A DNA stretch of 16,519 nt from an uncultured Deinococcales bacterium. Lineage in GTDB: Bacteria > Deinococcota > Deinococci > Deinococcales > JAAFIG01. Under the pieces are notes generated by a model, which was not told the origin of the DNA, did not search any database, and worked only from the letters and a program-made list of their open reading frames with translations. Where the stretch lies: positions 1-16,519 of the forward strand of contig CAXTTL010000102.1 of the NCBI GenBank assembly GCA_964247135.1, written 5' to 3'. A program made the position numbers and the translations under genes. Positions 1 through 16,455 of this stretch are shown here, in pieces. Every line of letters begins with the position of its first letter. Positions within the stretch are counted from its first letter, which is position 1.

Positions 1-168
1 TTTGATGGTGTCCAAGGCATGGTCTTATATTAAGCTAAAATTGCAGGAGTCAGTATCTTGGAAAGATTCTTATTAAACCAAGCAGTTTCAATCTAACCCC
101 TTCCCTCGAGTTTTCTTGGGAAGGGGTATTTTGAGCAAAGCACTTCTTAAAACGTCAGAAAGGAACTC

Positions 169-531
169 ATGATCTCGAGGTTGCATCATGTACAAATTAC
201 CATTCCAAGTGATGGTGAAGCCATCGCTCGAGCGTTTTATCTTGATTTGCTGGGCTTGATTGAGATTCCAAAACCAGATTCCTTGAAGGCTCGAGGTGGG
301 TTTTGGCTGTTGCTGGCGTGGCAAGAAATTCATGTTTCGCTCGAGGATGGCGTCAATCGTTTGGATACCAAAGCGCATCTTGCCTATGAAGTCACTGATC
401 TCGGGTTTTGGCGCTCGAGGTTGCTGCTTGCGGGTTTTGAACTGCTCGAGGGCGTGCCAATCCCTGGTTTTGACCGATTTGAAACCCGTGACCCTTTTGG
501 CAACAGGCTCGAGTTTATCTCAAAGATTTAA
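169..531 (+). CDS. VOC / glyoxalase-bleomycin resistance family protein
   Basis: 120-aa ORF with the VOC signature 'LHHVQITIP...ARAFY..LLGL.EI.KP', 'HLAYEV' and C-terminal 'RDPFGNRLEF'. A purine-rich AAGGAA lies just upstream of the ATG. Confidence 0.9.
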   Translation: MISRLHHVQITIPSDGEAIARAFYLDLLGLIEIPKPDSLKARGGFWLLLAWQEIHVSLEDGVNRLDTKAHLAYEVTDLGFWRSRLLLAGFELLEGVPIPGFDRFETRDPFGNRLEFISKI

Positions 532-548
532 TGCTCAATGCCCGAGTT

Positions 549-1298
549 TCAAGCGTCTTGGAGTGATGCGCGCCCAGTTCGTAAGCAACCTGCACGGTCA
601 GGTCTGCCGTTAAACTCGGCTTGACGGGCGGCAGCTTCCCAATCGTAGACAACCATAAGTTGCTGAATGTTCCAAGCGTTTTTGGCTTGCGTGAGCACCG
701 CACATCTGGCATGTGGACTGCCAGATTGCATCACATGAGGCACGGGTTTGTCGTGCTGATAGGCGGGCTGCCCAACGCTGCCTGGATTGACGACCAAACG
801 CCCATCTGAAAGCAGCACCGTTCTGGCAACATGCGAATGTCCACAAAAAATCACTTGATTTGGCACATCACCAAGTTTGGTAGCGATGGTGTGATCTTCT
901 TCAAGAAAAACACCCGATGTATTGATGCGCTCGAGCAAACAAATTTCGTCATCCAGTGGTGTAGCGTGAACCAAGAGTATCCCGTTGACTTCTCGTGTTT
1001 TAGGGAGTGAGTCAAGATACTCGAGTTGTGCGGCTCTCAAGCTGGTTTTCACAAATTCGAGGCTGGCTTCAGCGATCAGGTTTTCAGGGGTGTCGACCAA
1101 GATTCGATCTGTGTTGCCGCGAACACAGAGGATATTTTCGGCTTGCAGCAACTCGAGGCTTCCTCTTGGCTCGAGAGAGCCAAAAACGGTGTCACCCAAA
1201 TCATAAATTGCATCTACACTTAAATCGCGCAGGTTTCTCAAAACCGCTTCGAGTGCCAGAAGGTTACCGTGAACGTCAGCAATGATGCCCAGTCGCAT
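549..1298 (-). CDS. Metallophosphoesterase (YfcE/MJ0936-like, calcineurin-like fold)
   Basis: Motifs ADVHGN, DLGD, RGNTD, VHAT, CGHSH and NPGSVG. Start moved from 1355 (TTG) to the ATG at 1298 (MRLGIIADVHGN), which lies 6 nt downstream of a TATGAT -10 box on the minus strand. Confidence 0.9.
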   Translation of the reverse strand: MRLGIIADVHGNLLALEAVLRNLRDLSVDAIYDLGDTVFGSLEPRGSLELLQAENILCVRGNTDRILVDTPENLIAEASLEFVKTSLRAAQLEYLDSLPKTREVNGILLVHATPLDDEICLLERINTSGVFLEEDHTIATKLGDVPNQVIFCGHSHVARTVLLSDGRLVVNPGSVGQPAYQHDKPVPHVMQSGSPHARCAVLTQAKNAWNIQQLMVVYDWEAAARQAEFNGRPDRAGCLRTGRASLQDA

Positions 1299-1366
1299 CT
1301 CGAAATCATAGTTGATGTTTGAGCGGCTCGAGGTTGGGTTTGTATTTTGATCCAAGTCCAGATTTC

Positions 1367-1382
1367 TCGTAAACGTTTACGA
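1367..1382. promoter_or_regulatory. Perfect 16-bp palindrome TCGTAAACGTTTACGA, LacI-family operator-like, in the glgP promoter region
   Basis: Perfect dyad with an AAACGTTT core typical of LacI/GalR operators. It lies just upstream of a TGnTATGAT extended -10 (1387-1395). Confidence 0.65.
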
Positions 1383-1386
1383 AGCA

Positions 1387-1395
1387 TGTTATGAT
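1387..1395 (+). promoter_or_regulatory. Putative extended -10 promoter element (TGTTATGAT) for glgP
   Basis: TG-n-TATGAT match about 90 nt upstream of the glgP ATG. A GGAGG RBS precedes 1484. Confidence 0.45.
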
Positions 1396-1436
1396 GGTAA
1401 TGTCTTACGTTCGTCACCAAGAAGCCCCGTGAATAC

Positions 1437-1448
1437 GGAAGCGCTTCC
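1437..1448. promoter_or_regulatory. Perfect 12-bp palindrome GGAAGCGCTTCC, LacI-family operator-like, in the glgP leader
   Basis: Perfect dyad with an AAGCGCTT core (LacI/cre-like), about 35 nt upstream of the glgP start codon. Confidence 0.6.
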
Positions 1449-1483
1449 AGGTTGTCACAGAACCAGAGTCCTGGAGGTCAAAC

Positions 1484-4009
1484 ATGCAAGCCATCGGTAC
1501 CATTACCGTCACACCCAAACTTCCCAGCGTCATCAGCAGGCTCGAGGAACTGGCACAAAACCTGTACTGGAGCTGGAATCCAGCCGCCAGGGATTTGTTC
1601 CGCGAAATTAATTTTGAGGTCTTCACCCTCAGCCACCATTCACCCATGCGGGTGCTGCTCGAATGTCAACAGGCAGATTTTGATCGCGTCGCCGCCGACA
1701 AAAATTACCTCGAGCAATTTAAGACCGTCATGTCCGACTTTGACGCGTACCTGAAACGCAAAGACACCTGGTTTAAAGCCTCGCACCCCAAATTTGCCGG
1801 CAGCATCGCCTATTTTTCGATGGAATTTGGCTTGCACGAAAGCCTGCAAATTTACTCTGGCGGTCTGGGTGTGCTGGCGGGCGATCACTGCAAAAGCGCC
1901 TCCGACCTCGACCTGCCGTTTGCCGGCATTGGTCTGATGTACCGCGAGGGCAGCTTCCACCAAAACCTCAACAGAGACGGTTGGCAAGAAGAATGGTACG
2001 AAACCATTGTGCCCGAAAGAATTGGCGCGATCCTCGAGAGAGACGAAAGCGGCGCAGCCATCAAGATTGGCGTTGAAATCAACGAACGTCAAGTGTTCGT
2101 GCAAATCTGGCGCTTGCAAATCGGACGGATTCCGCTGTATTTGCTCGATGCCGCAGTGCCAGAAAACAACGAGACAGACCAAAAACTGACCGCACGTCTG
2201 TACGGCGCCGGCGGCGATTTCCGCGTGGCTCAAGAGCTTTTGTTGGGTGTCGGCGGCGTTCGCGCACTACGTGCCTTGAACATTGCCCCAAGCGTCTTTC
2301 ACATGAACGAAGGTCACGCCGCGTTCCTCGGACTTGAGCGCATCCGCGAGTACATGCTGGAGGGCTTAAGTCGCCTCGAGGCACTCGAGGCGGTTGCCGC
2401 CAGCGGCATTTTTACCACCCACACGCCAGTCCCAGCCGGCAACGACGCGTTTGCACTCGATATGATCGACAAAAAGCTCGGCAATTACTGGCTGAATGCC
2501 CTGCAAACCAGCCGCGACGAATTGATGGCGCTCGCCATGCACCAACAACCCTGGGGCGCATCCTTCAGCATGACCGTGCTGGCATTGCGCTGCTCGAGGT
2601 ACGCCAACGGCGTCTCGGAACTTCACGGCGAGGTATCGCGCGGCATGTGGAATTTCTTGTGGGCTGGCGCCGAAGTCCAAGAAGTGCCGATCACCCACGT
2701 CACCAATGGCGTTCACACCCGCACTTTCTTGGCGAGCGAGCTGGCGGAACTCTACGATGCGCACTTCAAGAAAAACTGGGACGACACCTTGGAACGACCT
2801 GAAAGCTGGCTGGTGGATAAAATCCCAGATGCCAAATTGTGGGACGCGCGACTGGCGCTGAAACAAAAATTGATTCGCTTCACCCGCAGCCGACTGCAAC
2901 GCCAAAATGAACGCAACAACGTCGGCTCGAGTTCGATGGTCTTGCACGACCAAAGCCTGACCATCGGATTTGCCCGTCGCTTTGCCACCTACAAACGCGC
3001 CACGCTGCTGTTCCGCGACCTTGAGCGTTTAAAGCGTATCGTCAACCACCCCACCCGCCCAGTGCAATTTATTTTTGCCGGCAAAGCCCACCCCGCCGAC
3101 AACCCAGGCAAAGAATTTATTCAGGCACTCTGGCGCTTCTCGCAAGATCCCGAACTGCGCGGCAAGGTCGTGTTTTTAGAGGATTACGACATGAACGTTG
3201 CCAGGCATTTGGTGCAGGGCAGCGACATCTGGCTCAACAACCCGCGCCGTCCACTCGAGGCATCGGGCACGAGCGGCGAGAAAGCCAGCCTGAACGGCTG
3301 CATCAACTTTAGTATTCTCGACGGCTGGTGGCGCGAGGCGAGCGACGGCACCAACGGCTGGAACATTGGCTCGGAACGCGAATTTGGCGAGGACGACGAC
3401 AGCCTCCGCGCCCAAGACGACGCCGATTCGCAAAGTTTGTATGACATCCTCGAGTTTGAAATCGCGCCGCTCTATTACGGCGACAAGATTGGCAACCCAG
3501 GCTGGCTTAAGGTGGTCAGGAACGCCATCCGCACCGTCGGACCCAAATTCAGTATGCAGCGCCAAGTCCAGGATTACACCAACGACCTGTACGCCAAAGC
3601 CCAAATCAACGGCGCCAGGGTCTCGAGCCAGGACTTTAAAACCGCCAAAGAGCTGGCAGCCTGGAAAGCCAGCACCCGCGCCGCCTGGGGCAACGTGCGT
3701 TTGGAAGCCACATTGGAGCAACCAAACCACATTTTGACCCCAGGTTCGAGCGTCAATGTCAGCGCTCGGGTTTTTGCTGGCAGCCTCGACCCACAAAGCC
3801 TGCGGATTGAAACGATTCTCGAGAATGGCACGGTCATTTCAACGCACTCCGACCTCAAATTAACCCGTCAAAACGAAGACGGCTGGCTCGAGTACACGGG
3901 CAGCGTGATCACGCCTGAAGCTGGCGCATTTAAAGTCGGCGTTCGTGCCGTGCCGTACCGCCAGGACCTGACCAACCCACTCGAGCTTGGATTGATTCGC
4001 TGGGCTTAA
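1484..4009 (+). CDS. glgP: Alpha-glucan (glycogen/maltodextrin) phosphorylase, GT35
   Basis: 841 aa with AYFSMEFG, YSGGLGVLAGDH, HMNEGH, FTTHTPVPAG, TNGVH, GFARRFATYKR, FAGKAHP and the PLP-lysine motif EASGTSGEKA. GGAGG RBS upstream. Confidence 0.97.
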   Translation: MQAIGTITVTPKLPSVISRLEELAQNLYWSWNPAARDLFREINFEVFTLSHHSPMRVLLECQQADFDRVAADKNYLEQFKTVMSDFDAYLKRKDTWFKASHPKFAGSIAYFSMEFGLHESLQIYSGGLGVLAGDHCKSASDLDLPFAGIGLMYREGSFHQNLNRDGWQEEWYETIVPERIGAILERDESGAAIKIGVEINERQVFVQIWRLQIGRIPLYLLDAAVPENNETDQKLTARLYGAGGDFRVAQELLLGVGGVRALRALNIAPSVFHMNEGHAAFLGLERIREYMLEGLSRLEALEAVAASGIFTTHTPVPAGNDAFALDMIDKKLGNYWLNALQTSRDELMALAMHQQPWGASFSMTVLALRCSRYANGVSELHGEVSRGMWNFLWAGAEVQEVPITHVTNGVHTRTFLASELAELYDAHFKKNWDDTLERPESWLVDKIPDAKLWDARLALKQKLIRFTRSRLQRQNERNNVGSSSMVLHDQSLTIGFARRFATYKRATLLFRDLERLKRIVNHPTRPVQFIFAGKAHPADNPGKEFIQALWRFSQDPELRGKVVFLEDYDMNVARHLVQGSDIWLNNPRRPLEASGTSGEKASLNGCINFSILDGWWREASDGTNGWNIGSEREFGEDDDSLRAQDDADSQSLYDILEFEIAPLYYGDKIGNPGWLKVVRNAIRTVGPKFSMQRQVQDYTNDLYAKAQINGARVSSQDFKTAKELAAWKASTRAAWGNVRLEATLEQPNHILTPGSSVNVSARVFAGSLDPQSLRIETILENGTVISTHSDLKLTRQNEDGWLEYTGSVITPEAGAFKVGVRAVPYRQDLTNPLELGLIRWA

Positions 4010-4030
4010 AAATTGAATTGTACAAAGAAG

Positions 4031-4062
4031 CTGGGGCTGAAATTTTTGATTTTCAGCCCCAG
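4031..4062. terminator. Intrinsic terminator hairpin, probably bidirectional, between convergent glgP and a lipoprotein gene
   Basis: 12-bp perfect stem CTGGGGCTGAAA / TTTCAGCCCCAG with an 8-nt loop, followed by ACTTTATT. Confidence 0.8.
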
Positions 4063-4080
4063 ACTTTATTCCTCTAACCT

Positions 4081-4431
4081 TCATGGAATATCACGAACGA
4101 AACTCAAGTTTTGAGCGTTCAATTTCAACTCGAGCGTGTTGCCATCAAACTTTTCTATCGTGGCATTCTGGACGGCTTGCCTGACTCGCTTGCCGCCAAC
4201 ATTCGCGTAAAATTCAAGCGTTAAGGTTTTATCTTCGAGTTTGTAGCTGCCTTGTAGCGGCAATTTTTGTCCCTGCAAAACACTAAAAACCCCACTCGAG
4301 AAACGGATTTGATGCCAACCGGCGGTTGCCGAACTGTTCCAAGTCCCCTGAAGTTGAGGCTCGAGATTTTCGGCTTTATTGCACGAAACCAAAACGATAA
4401 CAGCGAAAAGTGCGATTGATATTTTAAACAT
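4081..4431 (-). CDS. Small hypothetical lipoprotein (possible lipocalin-like beta barrel)
   Basis: Signal peptide with lipobox LVSC, then 'LQGTW' and alternating beta-strand patterns ('GSYKLEDKTLTL'). Start placed at the ATG at 4431 after an AAGGGA RBS; the ORF track starts at 4446. Confidence 0.75.
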   Translation of the reverse strand: MFKISIALFAVIVLVSCNKAENLEPQLQGTWNSSATAGWHQIRFSSGVFSVLQGQKLPLQGSYKLEDKTLTLEFYANVGGKRVRQAVQNATIEKFDGNTLELKLNAQNLSFVRDIP

Positions 4432-4481
4432 GTATTCCCTTTTCAAAACCTGAATTTCAACACCATGTTACCCGAAGTTTC

Positions 4482-4703
4482 TCAACCTCGAGAGTGTTGC
4501 AATTCGAGCAGCACCCGCGATTTGATGCCATCACCAAAGAACGCCAAACCTGCATTGACCACGCACAAACCAAGTGTGCCGAGCCAAAACCACGGCTCGC
4601 CCAAATTTTTTAAACGTGCCGCCTCAAGCGTGAGTGACAACCCAAAACCGACCAAGCTTAAACCGAGCGGCGAAAAAACCAACCATTTTGTGCGCAAATT
4701 CAT
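4482..4703 (-). CDS. Small two-helix membrane protein, hypothetical
   Basis: 73 aa with two hydrophobic segments (SPLGLSLVGFGLSL; WFWLGTLGLCVVNAGLAFFG). The ATG is 6 nt downstream of a TAATCT -10-like box. Confidence 0.7.
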   Translation of the reverse strand: MNLRTKWLVFSPLGLSLVGFGLSLTLEAARLKNLGEPWFWLGTLGLCVVNAGLAFFGDGIKSRVLLELQHSRG

Positions 4704-4765
4704 GACTTCAGATTACTGTTTCTCGAGGCATCACAACGCGTTCGTGGTAGCTTCAGAACCAGACC

Positions 4766-5635
4766 ATGAACCTTGACTGGCGTTGGACTGCGTTGTTCTT
4801 GTTGCCACTTGCCTTGCTGCTGGGCGTCTTCATGCTTGTTCCCGCCGTGGTCGGTTTGGCTGAAAGCTTCACGAACTTCTCGCCACTTTCAAACGCCCCG
4901 TGGCACGGTGTTGGACCCGAGAATTACCAACGCGCCCTGTCCAATCCCGAAATGCTGGCGGCGACCCGCAACATCGCCGTCCTGACGTTACTCACGGTCA
5001 GCCTCGAGTTGAGCCTTGGACTGTTGCTGGCGTTTGCCATGCATCGAACGTTTCGAGGGCATTCGTTGGTACGAATCTTGTTGCTGACGCCCTGGCTGGT
5101 CAGTCCAATCGCCAACGGCGTTCTGTGGCACAACGTCTACAACCTCGAGTCTGGACTGCTGAACTTCATCCCTCGGGTTTTGGGATTCGCCACTTTGCCA
5201 GACCCGCTCGGTCATGGCGGCGCCCTGTTCGCCGTGGCAATCGCCGAAATTTGGCGCAAAACGCCACTGGTCAGTTTTTTAGTGCTGCCAGGAATGCTCG
5301 GGATTCCCAAAACGTTTTTCGAGCACGCCAGGCTCGAGGGTTTAAACGACTGGCATCAATTTTGGCAGGTCGTCTTTCCTCGAGTCAGGCTGCTGCTGCT
5401 GACCACCTGCTTTTTGTTGGTTGCCGATGCCCTGGCGATGGGCGAGCACCTGCTGATGCTAACCGGTGGCGGTCCAGGCTCAGCCACCGTGACGCCGGCG
5501 TTGTTCAGCTATCAACAAGCGATACAGTCCTACAATTGGGCGCTGGGTTCAACCATTGCCTGGTTGGTCGCTGGCGCGGTTGCCATTGCCGCCACAATCT
5601 ATCTGTTCATCATGCGCCATGAGGAAACATCATGA
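4766..5635 (+). CDS. Carbohydrate ABC transporter permease (MalF/UgpA-like, CUT1)
   Basis: Multiple TM segments, 'VG.ENY', 'LLTPWLVSPI', EAA-loop variant 'FEHARLEGLNDWHQFWQVVFP', and 'LTGGGPG'. Confidence 0.9.
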   Translation: MNLDWRWTALFLLPLALLLGVFMLVPAVVGLAESFTNFSPLSNAPWHGVGPENYQRALSNPEMLAATRNIAVLTLLTVSLELSLGLLLAFAMHRTFRGHSLVRILLLTPWLVSPIANGVLWHNVYNLESGLLNFIPRVLGFATLPDPLGHGGALFAVAIAEIWRKTPLVSFLVLPGMLGIPKTFFEHARLEGLNDWHQFWQVVFPRVRLLLLTTCFLLVADALAMGEHLLMLTGGGPGSATVTPALFSYQQAIQSYNWALGSTIAWLVAGAVAIAATIYLFIMRHEETS

Positions 5636-6474
5636 CCCGCTCGGGTTTCAAGGCTCGAGATCGCGGTTTTCTCTGGCAGAACATTTTGATTGTGCTGGCG
5701 GTTGTTTTCAGCCTCTTGCCACTGGTTTGGACGCTGTTGGCTTCCATTGGCATCTGGGTCAACAACAACACGACACCCCCCTCGTGGCACGGCAGCCCAA
5801 GCTTTGAGCCTTTCGCCGGCGCCGTGCTTGCCAAATCTGGATTTATCACATCAATACTCAACAGTTTTGGCATCGCGGCATTGACCGCCCTGATCGCAAC
5901 TTTCACGGCTTCTCTCGCGGCTTACGCCCTGGCTCGAGCGCGATTTTCTGGGCAGAACTTGCTGGTGCACGTGTTGCTCGTTTTGAGCGGTCTGCCCGTG
6001 ATCGCCTACATGATGCCACTGAAATCAACATTGCTGGCGCTGCATCTTGGCGACACCTTTCTTGGCACAGCCCTGTCCGAAAGCGCCCTGTTCGCACCAC
6101 TGGCAACGTTTGTCGTGTTTGGTTATTTTAAAACCGTCCCGCTCGAGCCTGAACAAGCCGCGCAACTTGAGGGTGCGAATCCATTTCAAGTTTTAAGGCA
6201 CGTGGTTTTCCCAAGCTCGAGCCTTGGTATTTTTGCAACCGCGCTTGTGATTTTTGTGCTGTCCTGGAATCAATTTCTGCTGCCGAGTGCCGTGACGTTT
6301 CAACTCAAAACCGTGCCTGTCATCATCAACGATTTTTTTACCTTTGAACGCGAACCCGACTGGCAGACCGCCGCCGCCGCGTTGATGGCAGCGTTCATAC
6401 CAGTGATGCTGGTGGTCGCAAGCCTATTCCGTCTGCTCGAGCGCTTCAATTTGGGCGAAACCCGAGCAGACTGA
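5632..6474 (+). CDS. Carbohydrate ABC transporter permease (MalG/UgpE-like, CUT1)
   Basis: ATGA overlap with the previous gene. Motifs 'LNS', 'AAYALAR', EAA loop 'EQAAQLEGAN...HVVFP' and 'FVLSWNQFL'. Confidence 0.9.
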   Translation: MTRSGFKARDRGFLWQNILIVLAVVFSLLPLVWTLLASIGIWVNNNTTPPSWHGSPSFEPFAGAVLAKSGFITSILNSFGIAALTALIATFTASLAAYALARARFSGQNLLVHVLLVLSGLPVIAYMMPLKSTLLALHLGDTFLGTALSESALFAPLATFVVFGYFKTVPLEPEQAAQLEGANPFQVLRHVVFPSSSLGIFATALVIFVLSWNQFLLPSAVTFQLKTVPVIINDFFTFEREPDWQTAAAALMAAFIPVMLVVASLFRLLERFNLGETRAD

Positions 6475-6484
6475 GCACCTGAGT

Positions 6485-7030
6485 TTAAGCGTTGCGTTTC
6501 TCGAGCATCGCGGCGTTAAAGGCTGCCGATTGTCCTTTGGGAATACTCAGGCTTTGAAAATTCTCGCCCTGAAACATTTTGGCGAGGTACACGATCTGCC
6601 CGACGTGCCCAGGGTAATGCGCGAGTTGACGTTGAATCACCGCGATCACCGAATGCGGTTCACCACGAATCAAAACCGACCTAACGAAATCTTCGGGTTT
6701 CAAATTCTCGAGCGCCGAGAACAAGCAATTCCAACCCGATTCCCACAGCCCGAGAATTGCAGCTCGAGACAAATCTTCAGCTTCAAATTCGGCATCACGG
6801 TTTCGACTTGCGCTTTCACCGTCCGCATCAAAAAGACTGCCCCACCTCGAGATCATGTTGCCATGAAGATGCTTGACAATCACGGCAATGCTGTTCGAGT
6901 TGGGTTCTGGCAGCATGTTGAGTTGCTCGTCTGAGACTTGTGCGAGAGCGCCATCGCCATATTTTTTGTACTTTTTAAACTCGGCGAGGCTCGAGCTGAG
7001 AAAGTCATTTATCAAATCTTCGAGTGTCAT
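6485..7030 (-). CDS. DUF1572 family protein (DinB/YfiT-like superfamily)
   Basis: 'SNSIAVIVKHLHGNMISRW...DGE...RNRDAEF' and 'QRQLAHYPGHVGQIVYLAK'. The ATG is 6 nt downstream of TAGCAT. Confidence 0.85.
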   Translation of the reverse strand: MTLEDLINDFLSSSLAEFKKYKKYGDGALAQVSDEQLNMLPEPNSNSIAVIVKHLHGNMISRWGSLFDADGESASRNRDAEFEAEDLSRAAILGLWESGWNCLFSALENLKPEDFVRSVLIRGEPHSVIAVIQRQLAHYPGHVGQIVYLAKMFQGENFQSLSIPKGQSAAFNAAMLEKRNA

Positions 7031-7115
7031 ACGGTTATGCTACGAAAATATGATGTTCGCCGAAAGTATTTTTGGATGCTCGAGATTGATTGGGTAAAAA
7101 AGTTATGATCGGGTT

Positions 7116-7670: not shown

Positions 7671-7671
7671 T

Positions 7672-8229: not shown

Positions 8230-8269
8230 GCTCGAAATTCTAACCATTCAGATCACAACCAAAGCGTTT

Positions 8270-9148
8270 TTAATGACACGTTCCGACACCCGCATCGCCA
8301 AACGATTTTCCAGGTTCGGGCAAGAATTTAAATTTGTAACCCGAGGCGGCAAGCTCGAGCTTTAACACGCCGTAGGTGTCCGAATTAAAAGTTTGACTGT
8401 TGGGTTTTTTGATGCCCAAATGATAATGGCTGATGCCGCCAGAACCAACAATGATTTCGGTCGTGCCGCGTTGGTCCGCTTTGCCTGCCGCGTTCATTGC
8501 CGCGAACCGTTCATAGGTGTGCTCATGACCATTCAGTACCAGTTCAACGTTATTTTCGCTCACCGCTTTCCAAATGTCTTGCATAAAATCGTTGTCGCCG
8601 TGTTCCGCGCCGCTCGAGAATCTGGGGTGATGCCACATCACGATTTGGCAGGTGCTGGGGCTGGCTTTCAGGTCGCTCCGCAACCATTTTTCTTGACTCG
8701 AGCCTGCCTCGCAGCCGCCCACCGCCCAGCAATTGCTGTTGATCACCGCGATGTGCCACGCGCCGAGGTTGTACGAATAATAGCCTTTGCTCGGGTCGCC
8801 GGCTTTCGTGCCGAAATAACCGTAATAACCTGTGGCGTGGGGGGTGTTGTAATCGTGGTTGCCTGGGACTGGACGGGTTTTGGCTTTAAAGCCGCCCCAA
8901 CTTGGGTTGTAACAATCACCAAATTCTTGGCTTGTACCGTTCGGGTATACGTTGTCACCCAAAGTAAAAACGCCCGCGCCTGGGTTTTGGGTCAGGACGC
9001 CAGCCACCAGTTTTGCGGTCGCTTCGTCGCCAGCACTGTTACAACCCGCAATGTCGCCAGCGCCAACCAGCACGACGCTTTGCGGCGCCGAAAGTCCGTC
9101 GCAGGCGAGCAGAACACCACAAAAAACAAAGATCAAAGTCAGTTTCAT
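8270..9148 (-). CDS. Secreted/lipoprotein metallophosphoesterase (purple acid phosphatase-like)
   Basis: Lipobox LLAC and motifs AGDIA, LGDNVY, PGNHDY, WHHP, GHEH.YER. Confidence 0.9.
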   Translation of the reverse strand: MKLTLIFVFCGVLLACDGLSAPQSVVLVGAGDIAGCNSAGDEATAKLVAGVLTQNPGAGVFTLGDNVYPNGTSQEFGDCYNPSWGGFKAKTRPVPGNHDYNTPHATGYYGYFGTKAGDPSKGYYSYNLGAWHIAVINSNCWAVGGCEAGSSQEKWLRSDLKASPSTCQIVMWHHPRFSSGAEHGDNDFMQDIWKAVSENNVELVLNGHEHTYERFAAMNAAGKADQRGTTEIIVGSGGISHYHLGIKKPNSQTFNSDTYGVLKLELAASGYKFKFLPEPGKSFGDAGVGTCH

Positions 9149-9184
9149 ATTGACTCGAGCTTACCTCGGGATAGACTGCGAAAC

Positions 9185-9799
9185 ATGATTGACATTACCC
9201 GAGCGATTCACAACGACGCGCCGAACTGGTACGGCGATACGCCGGTGAATTATCAAACGCCGGTAAAAATCTCGAGTGGGGCAAGTGCCAACGTTGGCAG
9301 CATTACCATGAGCACCCACACTGGAACGCACGTCGATGCGCCGTGGCATTACGACGACGCGGGCATCAAACTCCATGAGGTGCCGCTCGAGACTTGGGTT
9401 GGAACGTGCATTGTGGTGAACGCTTTTGGCGTCTCGAGTTTGACGCCAGATTTGCTCGAGGGGCAGGATTTGAGCGGTGTGAGCAAAGTAATTTTTAAGA
9501 CTGGACAACCGAACGCTTGGCAGGAATTTCCCAGAATTTGGGCTGTAACCGACTCAAGTTTGCCGCCTTACCTGGCATCTCGAGGGATAAATTTGATCGG
9601 CACGGACGCGCCCAGTGCCGATGCGCTCGAGAGTAAAGACTTACCTGGTCACAAGGCGCTGGCAAAGGCAGGCGTGTGTATTCTCGAGAGTTTGGCACTC
9701 GAACATGTGAAGCCTGGAAAGTACCGTTTGATTTGTCTGCCACTGAATTTGATTGGCGCGGACGGTGCGCCCGCTCGGGTGATTCTCGAGAAGTTATAA
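9185..9799 (+). CDS. kynB: Cyclase-family metallohydrolase, kynurenine formamidase-like
   Basis: HTGTHVDAPWH motif, 'GTDAPSAD', 'H..L...GV.ILE.L.L', and 'LPL.L.GADGAPARV'. The real start is the ATG at 9185 (MIDIT...), 7 nt after TAGACT, not 8393 as in the ORF track. The family call is firm; the exact substrate is inferred. Confidence 0.8.
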   Translation: MIDITRAIHNDAPNWYGDTPVNYQTPVKISSGASANVGSITMSTHTGTHVDAPWHYDDAGIKLHEVPLETWVGTCIVVNAFGVSSLTPDLLEGQDLSGVSKVIFKTGQPNAWQEFPRIWAVTDSSLPPYLASRGINLIGTDAPSADALESKDLPGHKALAKAGVCILESLALEHVKPGKYRLICLPLNLIGADGAPARVILEKL

Positions 9800-9817
9800 T
9801 TATTGTGGAGGTTCAAA

Positions 9818-10081
9818 ATGATCGACAATTCGGTTTCGCTCGAGATTGAGGACTTGCCAGAGTTGTTTGGTGATGATGATTTTGCTGTCCAGGAGGCTTC
9901 GTTGGAGGCAATCGCGAGATTGCAAAGCAAGGGTATTGATATTTTTTACTTCGATGCGTATTTGAAAGTTCATGTTTTGGAAAAACCAAATGGTGATCGT
10001 TTTGAGATTCAGTACACGGGTAAACCAAAAGCCGATTTTGAGATTGTGAAGCCCTTATGTCCGATTCCACCACACATATAA
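9818..10081 (+). CDS. Small hypothetical protein
   Basis: 87-aa ORF with a GGAGG RBS before the ATG at 9818 and TATAAT at 9795-9800. Confidence 0.7.
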   Translation: MIDNSVSLEIEDLPELFGDDDFAVQEASLEAIARLQSKGIDIFYFDAYLKVHVLEKPNGDRFEIQYTGKPKADFEIVKPLCPIPPHI

Positions 10082-10116
10082 TTCTCTTAGAACGTAAAAT
10101 TGAGTAAACTATGTGC

Positions 10117-10353
10117 ATGAGTAAGTTCGAGTTGCTGGAACAACAAATTTTAGAACTCAATCAAGAAGAACTCGCTTTGCTGCGAGAAAAACTCGATGAA
10201 CTCGAGCTTGAGACACTCATTCCTGCGTTACAGTTAACACCCTCAAATGGCAAAAAAGCGCGAGGTCTACCTGATGGAATTATTTCGAGCAGCGGTGCTT
10301 CGATGAGCGATTCGATTCGCAAAATGCGTGATGAACGAGAATCAAGTTTGTGA
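10117..10353 (+). CDS. Putative antitoxin (VapB-like) of a type II TA pair
   Basis: Small acidic protein directly upstream of, and GTGA-overlapping, a PIN gene. The ATG at 10117 is 6 nt after TAAACT; the ORF track starts at 10111. Confidence 0.7.
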   Translation: MSKFELLEQQILELNQEELALLREKLDELELETLIPALQLTPSNGKKARGLPDGIISSSGASMSDSIRKMRDERESSL

Positions 10354-10772
10354 TTTTGTTTCTTGACTCGAGCGCGTTGGTTAAGTTGTATTCGGCGGAA
10401 GCGAACCGAAAAGTGGTGTTTTCTGCAATTGCCAAAGCTCGAGATGTTGCTGTTTCAAGTTTAAGCCTTGCAGAAGTTGCCAGCGCCTTAAAACGACATC
10501 AGTTGAAGGGGGGCTTTAGTCAAGCTGATGAACAGCTTGCATTTCAAGTTTTACTCGAGGATTGGGAAACATTTGATCGCATCGATTTGAGTGATTGGTT
10601 GGCAAAACAGGCGGCAGTCTTGGCTCGGTCCAAAGGTTTACGTGGCGCGGATGCAGTGCAATTGGCATCTGCCAGTTGGCTGACTCGAGAACGTCATGGC
10701 GTGCAGTTTTTGGCTTTCGATGTTCAGTTGAACGAGGCTGCTCGAGGGATTGTTCGGATTTTTGAACCTTAA
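10350..10772 (+). CDS. vapC: PIN-domain ribonuclease toxin (VapC family)
   Basis: 'LFLDSSALVKLY..E', 'SLAEVASAL', 'LRGADAVQLASA' and 'FLAFD..L..AA' give the PIN acidic residues. Confidence 0.9.
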   Translation: MILFLDSSALVKLYSAEANRKVVFSAIAKARDVAVSSLSLAEVASALKRHQLKGGFSQADEQLAFQVLLEDWETFDRIDLSDWLAKQAAVLARSKGLRGADAVQLASASWLTRERHGVQFLAFDVQLNEAARGIVRIFEP

Positions 10773-10807
10773 ATTTTGTTTCCAAATAACCGTGTCAGAA
10801 TACAGCC

Positions 10808-11638
10808 GTGTTGATTTACCAAATCCCAGGAACTTTAGAGACCCTCGATCACCTCACGCCTGCACTGTGGGAAGCTGGGGCGCAGGGACTCGAGGAACGT
10901 GATGGGCTGGTGCTGGTTTACTTTGAATCTCGACTCGAGTTGCCGTTTGGTGGCGTCTGGCTCGAGGCGGACGATACGGATTGGATTGCGCAGTACCGCG
11001 CAAGTTTGAAACCCGTCACGATTGGAAAAATCATCATCAACCCTGGTTGGGATTTGAGCCTAACGCCGAACTCGGACAAGATCGTGATTGACCTCGAGCC
11101 TGGTTTTGCTTTTGGCACAGGGCAGCACGAGACGACCCGCATGGCAATTTTGGCGTTGCAAGATCACGATTTGAAGAATGCTCGAGTGCTCGACGTGGGT
11201 TCGGGCAGTGGGATTTTGGCGCTGGTGGCGGCAAAACTCGGCGCAATAGTTCTGGCTGTGGACAACGACTCGAGCACCGTGCCTGTCGCTCGAGAGAACG
11301 CTGCGAAAAACAATGTTGAGGCAGAATTTGTCGATGGCATCCTGGAGACGGTGCTGCCTCGAGCGCCATTTGATGTGGTGGTGGCGAATCTGTTTGCAGA
11401 ACTTCACGACCTGCTGATGCCGCAGTACAAAACCGCGCTCGAGCCTGGCGGTTTGCTGTTGATGACGGGCATCATGGCGGGAACGGGTCAAGCCGACGCT
11501 GGCGAGCAAGTCACTTGGGACACCTCGAGCGGACGCGAGACGATGGTGATGACGGCACTGAAACGTGAGGGTTTTGAATTTGTTCGGCGCGTCCAAGATG
11601 GTGATTGGGTCTTGCTCGAGGCGCGAAAAACAGTGTGA
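10808..11638 (+). CDS. prmA: Ribosomal protein L11 methyltransferase
   Basis: 'EPGFAFGTGQHETT', SAM motif 'VLDVGSGSGILA', 'AVDND' and 'DVVVANL'. The short N-terminal domain resembles Thermus/Deinococcus PrmA. Confidence 0.93.
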   Translation: MLIYQIPGTLETLDHLTPALWEAGAQGLEERDGLVLVYFESRLELPFGGVWLEADDTDWIAQYRASLKPVTIGKIIINPGWDLSLTPNSDKIVIDLEPGFAFGTGQHETTRMAILALQDHDLKNARVLDVGSGSGILALVAAKLGAIVLAVDNDSSTVPVARENAAKNNVEAEFVDGILETVLPRAPFDVVVANLFAELHDLLMPQYKTALEPGGLLLMTGIMAGTGQADAGEQVTWDTSSGRETMVMTALKREGFEFVRRVQDGDWVLLEARKTV

Positions 11639-11666
11639 TCTCAGGTTCGGGCGGTAGACTTTAAAC

Positions 11667-12899
11667 ATGCGTAAGTTACTGGCTGTTCTGATTTCGTTTG
11701 CGGTGTTCACAACCTTTTCGCTGGCTCAAGCGCCAAGTCCAGCGCAGTATTTTCTCGACGAGGCATTAACCACGCTCGAGGAACGTTATTTCGGGTTTGC
11801 AACAATTGATTTTAAAACCCTTGATCAAAATGCCAACGCCAAACTCGAGCTTGCCTGCAAAGACCTTTTGCCGTGTCCTTTTGCGGCGGGCGAATCGACG
11901 CTCGACGATGTGCTTGCAGGTGTTGGGGACGGGCATACGTTTCGCTTGACGCCGATTGCCTGGGCGCAATTTGTCGCCAATTCGGACAATGCGCCCTTGC
12001 TGATGATTGGTCTGAAATTTGCGCCCTTGCCCGATGCCAGCGCGTTGGTGGTAACACGGGTGCTCGAGGGCAGTCCAGCAAAACTGGCTGGCATTCAGCG
12101 CGGTGATGTGGTCTGGGCGGTCAATGGGACGCCATTGGAGAATTTTAAATCTGCTGCCCAAGCCGTCAACGCCATCACAACGCTCGAGTTCAATAAGCAA
12201 AGCATCACGCTCGAGGTTTCAAGAGGAAATGGCGAACATAAAACCGTGAAGCTCGAGCCAGCCGAACTAAAACCGTGGTTGCCGAGTTACGAATTGCGCC
12301 CCGATGGCGTGGCAGTCATCACCTTTTACCAGTATCTTACGGGTGGTTTGATCGCCTCGAGCGTTCATGATTTTGTCAAACAAGCCCAAGCCGCCAAAGC
12401 TCGAGCGATGGTTTTGGACGTGCGCGGCTCTGGCGGCGGCAGTGGTTTTGAAAGCGTGGCTGCGGCTGGGGCGTTCACCGAACCTGTCGGCACACAGTTT
12501 GAAAATACTCGAGGCAAAGGCAAAATCGTGTACCAAAATGGTGAGATTGCCAACAGTGGTTTTAAAATTGGTAACCCTGCAAATTGGACGCAACCCGTGG
12601 TGGTGCTGACCAATCACATCTCGAGGAGCGCCGCCGAGTACATGGCGTTTTTCTTGCAAGAATCTGGGCGAGCCAAAGTGATTGGCGAAGCCACGGCTGG
12701 CGTTTTGAACACCAGCACCTCGATTTTCCCCCTGCCAGGAGGCTCGAGTCTTGCCGTGACCAGCGGACGCTCGAGCGATTTGAATGGCGTGCCTCACCCA
12801 GAACGGGTGACGCCCGACGTGGTCATGACCGACGACATGGCGGCATTGTCGCAAGGTCGTGATCTGATTCTGTTGAAGGCGCTCGAGATGCTGAAATGA
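11667..12899 (+). CDS. Secreted S41-family peptidase with PDZ domain
   Basis: Signal peptide, 'GDGHT', PDZ 'VLEGSPAKLAGIQRGDVVWAVNG', 'VLDVRGSGGG', 'VVLTN..SRSAAE', 'IGEATAG' and 'VTPDV'. Confidence 0.88.
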   Translation: MRKLLAVLISFAVFTTFSLAQAPSPAQYFLDEALTTLEERYFGFATIDFKTLDQNANAKLELACKDLLPCPFAAGESTLDDVLAGVGDGHTFRLTPIAWAQFVANSDNAPLLMIGLKFAPLPDASALVVTRVLEGSPAKLAGIQRGDVVWAVNGTPLENFKSAAQAVNAITTLEFNKQSITLEVSRGNGEHKTVKLEPAELKPWLPSYELRPDGVAVITFYQYLTGGLIASSVHDFVKQAQAAKARAMVLDVRGSGGGSGFESVAAAGAFTEPVGTQFENTRGKGKIVYQNGEIANSGFKIGNPANWTQPVVVLTNHISRSAAEYMAFFLQESGRAKVIGEATAGVLNTSTSIFPLPGGSSLAVTSGRSSDLNGVPHPERVTPDVVMTDDMAALSQGRDLILLKALEMLK

Positions 12900-13591
12900 G
12901 ATCACACCGTGCGTTTGTGGCGAAGCTCGAGCCAGTCGTGAAATTGATCGGTTCTGAAGCCTCGCATTTGCGGGTTTTGCGGGCTGGTGTTGGTGATCTG
13001 GTCACGCTGTTTGATGGCGCGGGACTCGAGGCAGACGCGAAAATATTGGCGCTCGAAGATTTTACAATCACACTCGAGGTTGGTGACTCTCGAATTGTGA
13101 ACCTCGAGCCACCGCAAGAAATCACGCTCGCCATCGCGCTTTTAAAGGGCGACAAGCTTGCCGAGGTCGTGCGTGCCGCCACAGAATTGGGCGTATCGAG
13201 GTTTTTGTTGCTGGTAAGCGATCACGCAGATGTTAAAGAAATCGGCGCTCAAAAACTCGAGCGTTTACAGCGCGTGGCGCTTGAAGCCAGCAAGCAATGC
13301 CGTCGGGCGGTCACCCCCCTGGTGCTCTCACCCATCAAACTGAAAACCCTAGAGCCTGTGGCTTGCGGTCTGGTGGCGCATCCTGGTTCGAGTTTGAAAC
13401 CTCGAGAAGCCGTCAATTGGGATTCGCCGATCACGGTTGCCACCGGTCCCGAAGGTGGTTTCTCGAGCTTGGAAATTGAGTGGCTCGAGTCAAAAGGTTT
13501 TAAAACGGTTGGACTTGGACCTCGGATTTTACGCGCCGAAACCGCGCCGATTGCGATTCTGGGCGCTTTGACGGCAGGTGAAGGCTATTGA
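12896..13591 (+). CDS. rsmE: 16S rRNA (uracil-1498 N3) methyltransferase
   Basis: 'SHLRVLR', 'KGDK...V.R.ATELGV', 'EASKQCRR' and SPOUT knot 'GPEGGFS..E', 'LGPRILRAETA'. ATGA overlap with the upstream gene. Confidence 0.95.
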   Translation: MRSHRAFVAKLEPVVKLIGSEASHLRVLRAGVGDLVTLFDGAGLEADAKILALEDFTITLEVGDSRIVNLEPPQEITLAIALLKGDKLAEVVRAATELGVSRFLLLVSDHADVKEIGAQKLERLQRVALEASKQCRRAVTPLVLSPIKLKTLEPVACGLVAHPGSSLKPREAVNWDSPITVATGPEGGFSSLEIEWLESKGFKTVGLGPRILRAETAPIAILGALTAGEGY

Positions 13592-13601
13592 TCGGCGACA
13601 C

Positions 13602-13771
13602 GGGGCGCATGGCTTCTTGACCATAAAATGCACCTACGGGCATGGTCGCTTCTTGACCATAAAATGCACCTACGGGCATGGTCGCTTCTTGACCATAAAA
13701 TGCACCTAACGGGCATGGTCGCTTCTTGACCATAAAATGCTCCTACGGGCATGGTCGCCATGCGCCCCTAC
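13602..13771. repeat. Four tandem 36-bp units enclosed by a 12-bp inverted repeat (GTAG-REP-like element)
   Basis: Unit GCTTCTTGACCATAAAATGCACCTACGGGCATGGTC at 13612-13647, 13648-13683, 13684-13720 (one extra A) and 13721-13756 (one substitution). Flanked by GGGGCGCATGGC (13602-13613) and GCCATGCGCCCC-TAC (13757-13771). Confidence 0.93.
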
Positions 13772-13789
13772 AAAAGCAAAAACGGCGAA

Positions 13790-13818
13790 TTGGAATTCTG
13801 GCGCGTAAGTTCTATCAT
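13790..13818 (+). promoter_or_regulatory. Putative sigma70-type promoter of lon (TTGGAA-17 nt-TATCAT)
   Basis: -35 TTGGAA at 13790-13795, exact 17-nt spacer, -10 TATCAT at 13813-13818. Confidence 0.55.
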
Positions 13819-13892
13819 GACCGAACGGCAGATTCGCCAGTTGCCATCACTCAACCAATCTTCACTTAGTTCACAAACACTTCACCAGAAAC

Positions 13893-13913
13893 CTTGATAT
13901 AACTACACTCAAG
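13893..13913. promoter_or_regulatory. HAIR-like operator (HspR binding site) upstream of lon
   Basis: CTTGATA-N7-ACTCAAG versus the HAIR consensus CTTGAGT-N7-ACTCAAG (12/14 matches, exact spacing), 28 nt before the lon ATG. lon is a known HspR-regulon member in Deinococcus and Streptomyces. Confidence 0.8.
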
Positions 13914-13941
13914 TTTCACCCGCTTTCAAAAAGGAGCAACC

Positions 13942-16455
13942 ATGCCTCGAGCACCGCGCAAGAAAAAAACCGACGACTCCACCTTCAACGTTCAAACCCA
14001 AAAACCAAAAATGAAAAACTCGGGCGTGGACACGCTTCGGGTGCCGGTCTGTCCGGTCTTGGGCAGCGTGATTTATCCAGGCATCATGCAGTCGGTGGCG
14101 GCAGGACGCCCGATCAGCGTCAATGCGATTCAGGCGGCGGTGGACGGCGCAAAAACCATTTTGATCGTCTCGCAGCGCGACAAGGACATCGAAAACCCTG
14201 GCGCGGGCGATTTGTTTGTGATCGGCACGCTTTGCAATATTTTAAGGATGCGCAAAAACCCTGACGGCACGGTGGAAACCCTAGTGCAAGCCCAAAGTCG
14301 GGTGCGGGTCACGCGCTATCACTTTGGCATCGAGTACATCGAAGCCGAACTCGAGGTGCTCGAGGATACCCATGTTGATGAAATCGAGACCCAGGCGTTA
14401 AAACGCGAACTTGACCGGCGCTTCAACGATGTCTTGAAAAACGGCAAGAATTTGCCCGTGGACACGGTCGGTTTTATTGTCGGACTCGAGCATCCCGGGC
14501 AGTTTGCCGACAACATTGCGTTCAATCTGGATTTAAAACTCGACGACCGACAGGGGATTCTCGAGGCGCTGGACGTGCGTGATCGTTTAAAGCGCGTCTT
14601 GGTGCTCTTGGACAGCGAACTCGAGCTGGGCGAAATGCAAAAACGCATTCAGGGGCAGGTCAAGGACGAGATCGACAAGAATCAACGCGAGTATTTCTTG
14701 CGCGAGCAGATGAAAGCGATTCAAAAAGAATTGCGCGGCGAGGAGGACGGCGAGGACGAGGTCGAGTTGTTCCGCAGCAAAATCGTGGCGCTCGGTTTGG
14801 TTGAGGAGGTGCAGCGCGAGGTTGACCGCGAGATCAACCGCATGGCGCGAATGCATCCCGACAGCGCCGAAGCCAGCGTGATTCGCACCTACCTGACCTG
14901 GATTACCGAATTGCCCTGGAACACCAGAAGTGATGACCAACTCGAGTTGACGGACGCAACCAAAATTTTGGACGAGGATCATTACGGACTTGAAAAAGTC
15001 AAAGACCGCATCCTCGAGTTTTTGGCGGTCAGACAATTGCGCAGAGCCAGAGCCGCAAAGGGCGAACTCGAGGCGAGCGAGGTCAACAAAGGACCGATTC
15101 TGGTGTTTGTTGGACCGCCCGGCGTGGGTAAAACCAGCATCGCGCAGAGTATTGCCAAGTCACTCGGGCGCAAGTACGTGCGGATTTCTTTGGGCGGCGC
15201 CCGAGACGAGGCGGACATTCGCGGGCATCGCCGCACCTACATTGGGGCGTTGCCTGGGCGCATCATTCAGGGTTTAAAGACGGCTGGCACCAAAAATCCG
15301 GTGTTTCTGCTCGACGAAATCGATAAGCTCGGCAGTTCGTATCAGGGCGATCCGAGCAGCGCTTTGCTCGAGGTGCTCGACCCAGCGCAAAACTCGACTT
15401 TTGTGGATCACTATTTGGGTGTGCCGTTTGATCTGAGTGAGGTCATGTTTATTGCCACCGCCAATTACCCAGAGCAAATCCCAGCGCCCTTGTTGGACCG
15501 CATGGAATTTATCGAGTTCAACTCGTACATCGAATCCGAAAAACTCGAGATTGCCAAAAAGTACCTGATGCCACGTCAAACGCTCGAAAATGGCTTGAAG
15601 GACAACCAGATTTTGGTCACCGACGCCGCGCTGCAAAAGCTAATTCAGAATTACACCCGCGAGGCTGGGGTGCGAAACCTCGAGCGCGAGATTGGCACCT
15701 TGCTGCGCAAGGCGGCACGTAAGGTTGCCACGGGTGACATCAAACGGGTGCGAATCGGCGAGAACGACCTCGAGAAATTCATTGGACCCTCGCGCCACCA
15801 GATTGAGGTCGAGGGCAAAGAGGACATGGTCGGCGTCAGCACGGGCATGTTTTACACGCCGGTCGGCGGTGACATTCTGTTCGTCGAAACCAGCGTCATG
15901 CCTGGTCGCGGTTTGGTCTTGACAGGTCAGTTGGGCGATGTCATGAAAGAGAGCGCCCGAGCCGCCTTGAGTTACGCCAAGAAAAACGCGGCACGCTTTA
16001 ACATTCCAGCCTCGAGCATCGACGAATCCGAGATTCACGTGCACATTCCTGCCGGCGCGATCCCCAAAGAGGGTCCGAGTGCGGGCGTAGCGCTGACCAC
16101 AAGCCTCATCAGCGCCCTGACGAACGTTCCAGCCCGCCACGATGTCAGCATGACCGGCGAGATCACCTTGACGGGGCGCGTGCTGCCAATTGGTGGTTTG
16201 AAAGAAAAAGTTTTGGGCGCGAGACGCGCCGGTATCAAACACGTGATCCTGCCCAAAGCCAACGAGGCAGACCTGCAAGAAATTCCGGCGCACCTGCGGC
16301 GCTCCATGAGCTTTCATCCGGTCGAGAACCTCGATCAGGCACTCGAGATTGCGCTGGTTGGAGGGTTGAAGGCGCTCGAGCGAACGGTCATCAGCGACAT
16401 CAAACCGAAGACACCACGAAAAACAAAAACCCAAGCGCCGAGCACACGGGCTTAA
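13942..16455 (+). CDS. lon: ATP-dependent Lon protease (LonA)
   Basis: N domain, '[17 protein letters not shown]', Walker A GPPGVGKT, '[13 protein letters not shown]', Walker B 'LLDEIDK', catalytic Ser in PKEGPSAG and Lys in IGGLKEK. AAGGAG RBS upstream. Confidence 0.98.

Follow-up and report, generated by a model that had tools for sequence, protein, structure and literature searches.

The hexamer CTCGAG as a highly iterated palindrome in a family of Deinococcales bacteria

The palindromic hexamer CTCGAG is present in extreme excess in the genome of an uncultured Deinococcales bacterium, within genes and between them, and is maintained there as an exact 6-bp word. The phenomenon was met in a stretch of 16,519 nucleotides (contig CAXTTL010000102.1 of assembly GCA_964247135.1, referred to here as the window), which is contig C102 of a 5.09-Mb assembly of 386 contigs with a median contig of 9.3 kb, 52.7% G+C and 84% completeness. 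An earlier note, made from the letters of the window alone, had likened the word to the cyanobacterial highly iterated palindrome HIP1, had estimated about 120 copies and a roughly 25-fold enrichment, and had postulated a genome-wide mechanism that creates or retains the motif. Exactly 120 copies were counted, the first at position 105 and the last at 16375-16380 (one per 138 bp), against an expectation of 3.54 (standard deviation 1.96, maximum 9) from 200 dinucleotide-preserving shuffles of the window, none of which reached 120. The whole genome holds 33,925 copies, about one per 150 bp, and the observed/expected ratio (O/E) of 24.7 under zero-order composition agrees with the estimate. Related Deinococcota share the trait and the sites are conserved above background, as a genome-wide maintaining mechanism would have it. 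Because intact sites disappear at a lower rate, and sequences one base away from the motif are converted to it at a higher one, than background rates predict, a force acting at the DNA level on the whole word is indicated. We tentatively favour the idea that a protein reading exact CTCGAG gives DNA rich in intact sites an advantage in transmission.

The excess holds under composition models of first and second order (O/E 35.2 and 14.4), falls to 3.45 at order 3 and is only 1.24 at order 4, the maximal-order Markov model. CTCGAG is nonetheless the most frequent of all hexamers in the genome, ranks 2 to 6 are taken by words that overlap it, the runner-up palindrome is enriched only 3.7-fold, and 88% of TCGAG occurrences are preceded by C. 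The low order-4 value, and the flattening under a model that preserves codon pairs, arise because the motif itself makes the enriched 5-mers (CTCGA, TCGAG) and codon pairs; as these are products of the motif, both models were dropped as tests. The earlier note had named the disappearance of the enrichment after amino-acid- and codon-pair-preserving shuffling as grounds for abandoning it; the excess survives the first kind of shuffling, as described below, and is flattened only by the second and by the maximal-order model, whose units the motif creates. Nor is the excess confined to one contig, a further doubt raised at the outset, since sites occur on all 386 contigs at 2.6-11.3 per kb (median 6.8). 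Each of the 14 genes called in the window has at least one site, as had been noticed, and so do 96.4% of the 4,229 genes called genome-wide; the calls are crude, having been made with a simple codon-model picker of open reading frames (ORFs) that yields a coding fraction of 80%, with genes truncated at contig ends excluded.

Coding sequences hold 27,178 sites, of which 17,104 lie in frame 0 (CTC-GAG, Leu-Glu), 3,912 in frame 1 and 6,162 in frame 2. When synonymous codons were shuffled within each gene, so that neither the encoded protein nor the codon usage of the gene was altered, 3,810 +/- 69 sites remained, which puts the observed numbers at 5.7, 15.0 and 11.4 times expectation for the three frames; shuffling codon order gave ratios of 14.8, 26.7 and 21.0. 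The signal is stronger still in the short gaps between called genes that were taken as intergenic (2,007 gaps, 216 kb, 46% G+C), where 2,048 sites (9.48/kb) were found against 40 +/- 6 after shuffling, 46 times the zero-order expectation, and where 64% of the gaps contain the motif. The claim that the pattern exceeds codon usage is therefore borne out. The small glyoxalase/VOC-family gene at 169-531 repeats it in miniature, with three sites in frame 0 (340, 445 and 508, Leu-Glu), two in frame 1 (227 and 290, xCT-CGA-Gxx) and two in frame 2 (174 and 414, xxC-TCG-AGx), exactly as first assigned. Five window sites had been called intergenic: those at 7079 and 9154 do lie between genes and that at 105 precedes the first gene, but 1327 and 4722 fall in ORFs (549-1355 on the minus strand and 4465-4776 on the plus strand) taken at provisional limits.

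The motif leaves its mark on protein composition, as the earlier note had supposed. Leu-Glu is the most over-represented dipeptide of the proteome, with 22,007 copies and an O/E of 2.37, against 1.01 for Glu-Leu, and CTCGAG spells 78% of all Leu-Glu dipeptides; the force on CTCGAG is strong enough to more than double Leu-Glu in the proteome. Large shares of particular codons stand inside the motif (CTC 44%, GAG 45%, CGA 32%, TCG 29%). In the Lon protease seven orthologues from the family have 15-21 Leu-Glu dipeptides and six Deinococcus orthologues 8-12, and several of the positions concerned align with IT, LP, KD, QE, LS or LD in Deinococcus, the direction of these changes being unpolarised. 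The reverse word GAGCTC, which codes for Glu-Leu, has no copy in the source genome.

These figures bear on the most prosaic explanation, namely that CTCGAG is a by-product of codon or dipeptide usage, or an artefact of assembly or cloning. Such an origin could draw on the 63% of coding sites that stand in the Leu-Glu frame, on the order-4 ratio of 1.24, and on the fact that among viral contigs (at least 120 stretches listed) the densest, at 64-72% G+C, hold 3-7 CTCGAG per kb, many with GAGCTC about equally frequent. It is contradicted by the 15-fold and 11-fold excesses in frames 1 and 2, the 46-fold excess in intergenic DNA, the absence of GAGCTC and the unremarkable Glu-Leu ratio, so that usage was rejected as the cause, and the agreement of 19 independent assemblies speaks against an artefact; the whole explanation can practically be dismissed. 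The viral density may be read as a Leu-Glu/Glu-Leu codon effect and so as a different phenomenon, and no phage of the family was apparent among the viral matches listed.

The unit under this force is the bare hexamer, as had been proposed from the varied flanks. At flanking positions no base exceeds 39% (G before the motif, C after it), and the palindrome extends by at least 1 bp at 21% of sites, not above chance. The nine classes of words that differ from CTCGAG at one position have O/E values of 0.08-1.74, the lowest being the class that contains CTAG; CCCGGG, GTCGAC and TTCGAA are strongly avoided, ATCGAT is neutral, and in each of the 19 family genomes the count of CTCGAA is close to that of its reversed control. 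Broader motifs (CYCGRG, NTCGAN or an extended palindrome) were accordingly set aside, being not generally enriched and showing no extension of the arms. The motif outnumbers all of its one-off neighbours together by 33,925 to 22,412, where neutrality would predict 1 to about 18; from this shift of about 27-fold we infer a population-scaled per-site bias of about 3.3. A dispersed repeat element of the repetitive extragenic palindrome or miniature inverted-repeat transposable element type was not in evidence, as the counts of flanks and extensions show that copies share no sequence beyond the core word. The unit is thus neither a mobile repeat nor a matter of codon usage.

The trait extends through the family to which the source genome belongs, represented by the source genome and 18 others (19 genomes of five genera, which as kin are not independent). 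All 18 others hold 12,028-35,442 sites at 4.3-6.8/kb, a single-contig chromosome among them, and the density of the source genome is among the highest. Since these genomes and the independent records of the same locus from metagenome-assembled genomes (MAGs) agree, an artefact of assembly or cloning, against which the note had already argued from the intact ORFs, is excluded. At the Lon locus, where the closest records are titled 'MAG: Deinococcales bacterium', family MAGs of 43-60% G+C have 3.7-7.8 sites per kb, two Meiothermus MAGs 1.2-1.8/kb (4-6 times enriched), three Trueperaceae MAGs about 1/kb, and 13 named Deinococcus only 0 or 1 site in 2.9-8.5 kb. Among 201 Deinococcota genomes, whose genus names were inferred from separate, named Lon loci, the 83 genomes of one large genus hold no more than 26-1,010 copies each; this genus is probably Deinococcus, in which conserved Leu-Glu dipeptides are written with other codons. 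CTCGAG and GAGCTC are roughly equal in number in a genus of 30 genomes, each of about 2.2 Mb, and densities of 2-3.6/kb are attained in several more genera. Over the 219 genomes counted in all, density runs from about 0.01 to 6.8/kb. From three of these enriched lineages, samples of 41-140 kb were analysed and showed an excess of about 10-fold, with all frames 3.6-11 times over the synonymous shuffle and uncalled DNA at 6-13 times expectation. On the strength of the wider genome counts, the Lon loci and these samples, the trait spans the phylum to differing degrees, with its extreme in this family and a reversal in the apparent Deinococcus.

Comparison with close relatives shows how the sites fare over time. 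Five relatives of the same genus have 83-86% DNA identity to the window, and each keeps 65-76% of the window sites as CTCGAG, against 38-44% identity for control hexamers; 22 of 62 sites are common to all six genomes, against 13% of controls. Turnover was followed in about 42 kb aligned between the source genome and two relatives (G005 and G004), with ancestral states assigned by majority and background rates estimated per codon position and base. For 338 ancestral sites 151 lineage losses were found where 347 were expected (0.43), with ratios of 0.41, 0.53 and 0.48 in the three frames and 0.41 in intergenic DNA, and 150 ancestors one base away from the motif gave 27 gains against 11.0 expected (2.45). 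Substitutions at motif bases stand at 0.61 of expectation overall (range 0.53-0.77), against 1.08 in the 24 flanking positions. At their matching positions, sequences that are one, two or three substitutions short of the motif change at the background pace (ratios 1.00, 1.06 and 0.95), and around conserved sites no gradient of substitution rate was found beyond the first 3 bases, which argues against local mismatch repair guided by the sites. The force looks ongoing.

The differences themselves are of an unusual kind. Where a motif position differs and the flanks are conserved, at least three of the six bases are changed in 21.1% of cases (52/246), against 9.8% of controls, a contrast whose p-value is overstated as the control windows overlap. 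Examples occur at 8697, 9154, 9433, 12400, 15679 and 15769, where CTCGAG stands against words such as ACTGAT, CGAAAG or TTAGAA, the relative differing at 3-5 of the six bases with the 9 bases on either side identical or nearly so; site 9154, for instance, is kept in four of five genus relatives and reads CGAAAG between identical flanks in the fifth. Lost sites average 1.65 changes (249 substitutions over 151 losses). Sites may be written several bases at once. A sequence-specific mutational or templated process, such as short-patch conversion of near-cognate words, could write the motif with no advantage to the carrier, and the gains at 2.45 times expectation, the multi-base differences and the number of changes per lost site would suit it. 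A purely creative process, however, leaves the protection of intact sites (O/E 0.43-0.61) unexplained, words a single step from the motif show background rates of change, and no one-off class is depleted save that containing CTAG, unlike what very-short-patch repair would be expected to produce. Writing of this kind is therefore considered quite improbable.

The placement of sites along the genome is nearly even, yet without regular spacing. Density is almost flat with respect to gene position, except that it rises to 16/kb directly downstream of stop codons and drops in the region of ribosome binding and translation start. Gaps between sites are near exponential (mean 148, median 108, largest 2,644 bp) with an excess of long gaps and a 3-base periodicity, and 5-kb windows hold 8-64 copies with a variance/mean ratio of 1.88. 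This over-dispersion says nothing for or against a drive. The site-poorest 5-kb windows contain a DDE transposase and unannotated large genes, and neither Rfam nor tRNA searches gave a match in the window or in four low-density regions. DNA common to the genus relatives has 7.60 sites per kb and unshared DNA 4.58. Weak selection at each site, exerted through an abundant nucleoid or chromosome-organising protein that binds CTCGAG, with density itself under selection, would agree with a signal that is exact in its word, resides in the DNA, is independent of frame and gene and is nearly uniform in position, as well as with the greater richness of resident over accessory DNA. Conservation above background is also in its favour, and the available text of PMC5861425 makes the same argument for selection on, and a nucleoid role of, HIP1. 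Large-scale periodicity, at 10-90 kb (Xu et al. 2018), is a further part of the case made for HIP1. Irregular spacing and over-dispersed counts fit such a role poorly, no candidate protein was found, and a range from depletion to 6.8/kb within one phylum would be odd for a core structural function; on balance a nucleoid role is unlikely.

No gene that could be responsible is visible in the window, as had been recognised; the search for the agent took in the genomes. An endonuclease of the XhoI family (PF04555) was found in none of the 19 family genomes, in one of 12 other Deinococcota genomes and in none of the three genomes searched from the depleted genus (the apparent Deinococcus). The one carrier, G021, lies outside the family; there the nuclease gene (contig C1:74900-76800) is convergent with an adjoining beta-class methyltransferase gene, and the genome still holds 3,937 CTCGAG sites (1.7/kb). 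A tblastn search with this nuclease gave no match in the source genome, where the best relative of the methyltransferase has 25% identity.

A methylation-linked origin, as in Elhai's model of HIP1, would involve a CTCGAG-specific and perhaps orphan methyltransferase, with methylation-dependent repair or an epigenetic function favouring intact sites. HIP1 and alternate highly iterated palindromes co-occur with cognate methyltransferases according to the accessible part of PMC4390886, and CTCGAG carries 5-methylcytosine in Halorubrum sp. BOL3-1, as stated in the part of PMC8112702 at hand. Exact-hexamer specificity is typical of methyltransferases, the adjoining gene pair of G021 provides an example within the phylum, and the family genomes are rich in such enzymes, the source genome having two of the C5 class, several of the beta class, one of the D12 class and four large gamma-like ones. 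Nevertheless, among the C5, beta, D12 and gamma classes no orthologue common to the 19 genomes was found (gamma in six genomes only). The two C5 enzymes (C14 and C178) are sporadic in the family, with orthologues in only three other genomes each; the beta-class enzymes of C189 and C207 show no orthologue-level conservation, and beta-class enzymes were not found in three of the 19 genomes, including the single-contig G011 (at an E threshold of 1e-8 for G011). The only C5 enzyme of G011, encoded beside genes of the ORC/Cdc6-like and HD kinds, lacks any orthologue of more than 38% identity. D12-class enzymes form at least 11 clusters in the family, and the large Eco57I-like/N6_Mtase proteins (C112, C21, C192, C169) were discarded as candidates because loci from five good genomes contain no orthologues.

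Two further enzymes could be matched to other words. That of C36 (20010-21059; L088:1378-2427) is close to M.PvuII (E 1.5e-149 to PDB 1BOO), and CAGCTG, which we take to be the target of this PvuII-like enzyme, has only 15 copies. The D12 gene of C320 (about 1060-3000; L368:320-2244) overlaps by 4 bases with a gene for a SacI-family nuclease (PF09566, 29.7 bits), for which the target is presumably GAGCTC, a word with 3-25 copies in most family genomes. This D12 methyltransferase is 76-93% identical in six other family genomes, and because the order of identities does not follow genus relationships, its distribution suggests transfer within the family. A second D12 enzyme, the vertically inherited D12-a, which in four genus relatives forms a cassette with a 397-amino-acid gene lacking a Pfam match, has been replaced in the source genome. 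Comparison of C14:35000-38100 with contig C6 of G005 (L211) shows a restriction-modification swap locus adjoining a nucleoside hydrolase gene, where the source genome has a C5 methyltransferase and a 22-residue remnant of the 397-amino-acid gene. Despite this replacement the motif density and turnover of the source genome resemble those of G005, and its density is among the highest in the family, a poor fit to a methylation-linked origin, as are the missing family-wide orthologue and the distance of the G021 enzyme. The link to a CTCGAG or TCGA methyltransferase suggested in the earlier note thus found no support in these searches, and a methylation-linked origin is rated as unlikely. As far as searched, CTCGAG would seem to be neither the target of a family-wide cognate methyltransferase nor an XhoI-type restriction target.

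The account that we prefer, with a probability of about 0.4, is a molecular drive. Here a protein would read exact CTCGAG with a specificity like that of a restriction enzyme, and DNA with intact sites would gain an advantage in transmission between cells or between chromosome copies, most probably because site-rich DNA would be preferentially taken up, survive or be recombined. Such a drive would have parallels in the DNA uptake sequences known from Neisseria and Haemophilus, and in what is currently suggested for HIP1. ComEC and DprA are present in five of five family genomes tested; since the same families also match in non-competent controls, this is compatible with uptake without supporting it. 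A collection of plasmids searched with the permease of the window gave no match at 1e-30.

Several observations weigh against such a drive. The genome searches yielded no reader protein, and the uptake or recombination step is one that we only infer. Known uptake sequences are non-palindromic words of 9-12 bp with about one copy per kb; CTCGAG is a 6-bp palindrome at seven times that density. The classic examples of natural transformation in the phylum are Thermus and Deinococcus, and the genera taken as these show no specific enrichment, or depletion, so that competence alone does not yield the motif. Given the many methyltransferases of these genomes, a set of non-orthologous enzymes with a common CTCGAG specificity is possible. 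Parsimony counts give 37, 44 and 71 losses (sum 152) against 16, 17 and 12 gains (sum 45) in the three lineages, an imbalance not predicted by a simple equilibrium drive, nor is the multi-base excess; the imbalance may reflect a tree that is not a star (G004 looks more distant), mis-polarisation, majority polarisation being crude, or slow net decay. A wider version of the drive may also be entertained, in which a reader other than a methyltransferase biases uptake, recombination or repair throughout the Deinococcota, and CTCGAG spreads selfishly, rewrites the proteome and has been purged in the sister genus Deinococcus; this wider version is somewhat doubtful.

The features of the window to which these results refer are collected in Table 1. 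The count of 11 sites given earlier for prmA proved right.

Table 1. Coordinates of the motif and of selected genes and intergenic sites in the window
Feature	Position	Strand	Details
120 dispersed CTCGAG copies	105..16380		120 vs 3.54 +/- 1.96 expected (dinucleotide-preserving shuffles)
Glyoxalase/VOC-family gene	169..531	+	PF00903; 7 sites: 174, 227, 290, 340, 414, 445, 508
Intergenic CTCGAG	7079..7084		Between gene ending 7030 and gene starting 7116
Intergenic CTCGAG	9154..9159		Directly upstream of gene 8270-9148 (minus strand)
prmA (ribosomal protein L11 methyltransferase)	10808..11638	+	PF06325, 182.5 bits; 11 sites, 10889 to 11615
Lon protease gene	13942..16455	+	Lon domains; 16 sites, 14 coding Leu-Glu

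Two other sequence features were recorded alongside. In the gap upstream of lon (13612-13758) a 36-bp unit is repeated 4.1 times in tandem with 97% matches and no CTCGAG inside; the unit holds a short hairpin (ATGGTC-N7-GACCAT), and the array has a folding z of -5.2 and no Rfam or tRNA match. The core of the unit occurs 11 times on six contigs of the source genome, and copies of 88-97% identity related to it are found on many contigs of the family genomes. Separately, many palindromes are almost absent from the source genome: GGCC has 380 copies (O/E 0.016), and the counts are 1 for GGGCCC, 3 for CGGCCG, 4 for AGGCCT, 5 for CGTACG and 7 for GGATCC, followed by CCGCGG (11), GCATGC (17), ACTAGT (18) and AGATCT (25). 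Avoidance of GGCC varies in the family, with 15-29 copies at the Lon locus in three MAGs against 0-2 in others.

The range of the trait within one phylum, from 26-1,010 copies per genome to 34,000, makes it suitable for phylogenetic profiling of the responsible gene, and as lineages of intermediate enrichment appear to include cultured genera (judging from the Meiothermus MAG loci), bench experiments on binding, methylation and uptake would be feasible. The family offers a case in which a signal at the DNA level measurably bends protein composition. There are practical consequences as well: XhoI would cut such DNA to fragments of about 150 bp, and odd behaviour is to be expected of oligonucleotide binning, codon models and gene finders that were trained elsewhere when they are applied to these genomes.

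CTCGAG can be compared with four kinds of known system. It is the recognition sequence of XhoI and PaeR7I, an identical hexamer, and an XhoI-family nuclease with a methyltransferase does occur in one Deinococcota genome. Restriction targets, however, are normally avoided, as the source genome avoids the presumed targets of its own systems (GAGCTC with no copy, CAGCTG with 15), whereas CTCGAG is in excess and the 19 family genomes have no XhoI-family nuclease. The very-short-patch repair of Escherichia coli likewise shifts oligonucleotide frequencies genome-wide through a repair bias, with an excess of CCWGG and a deficit of CTAG, but its effect is below about 2-fold and it depletes one one-off class; the CTCGAG excess is 25-fold, and the only depleted class is the one containing CTAG.

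The DNA uptake sequences (DUS) of Neisseria and the uptake signal sequences of Pasteurellaceae are family-wide words, rich in resident DNA, that lie within genes in several frames and can bias the proteome. CTCGAG resembles them in being richer in resident than in unshared DNA and in occurring alongside ComEC and DprA. It differs from these asymmetric words, for the first of which (DUS) a pilin receptor is known, in being a short palindrome, present once per 150 bp and without a conserved flank.

The closest likeness is to HIP1 (GCGATCGC). To our knowledge, work on highly iterated palindromes has dealt almost exclusively with cyanobacteria, and what HIP1 does is still debated after 30 years. 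In a literature search that did not cover supplementary tables, no report was found of CTCGAG over-representation or of any highly iterated palindrome in Deinococcota. HIP1 is described as 15-300 times over-represented and conserved above background in the available portion of PMC5861425, and as occurring at about one site per kb in that of PMC4390886; the text at hand of PMC13756078 gives it the methyltransferases DmtA and DmtC and now proposes it as an uptake-recognition sequence. Both words are short palindromes, hyper-abundant throughout a lineage, in and between genes, conserved and not driven by codons or peptides, and for CTCGAG the genome-wide excess is above 15-fold at order zero and extends to all frames and to intergenic DNA. 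The two differ in that no lineage-wide cognate methyltransferase was found for CTCGAG, and CGATCG has only 47 copies in the source genome. CTCGAG would accordingly stand as a second, independent highly iterated palindrome, in another phylum, with another and shorter word (6 bp, not 8) and a density several-fold higher.

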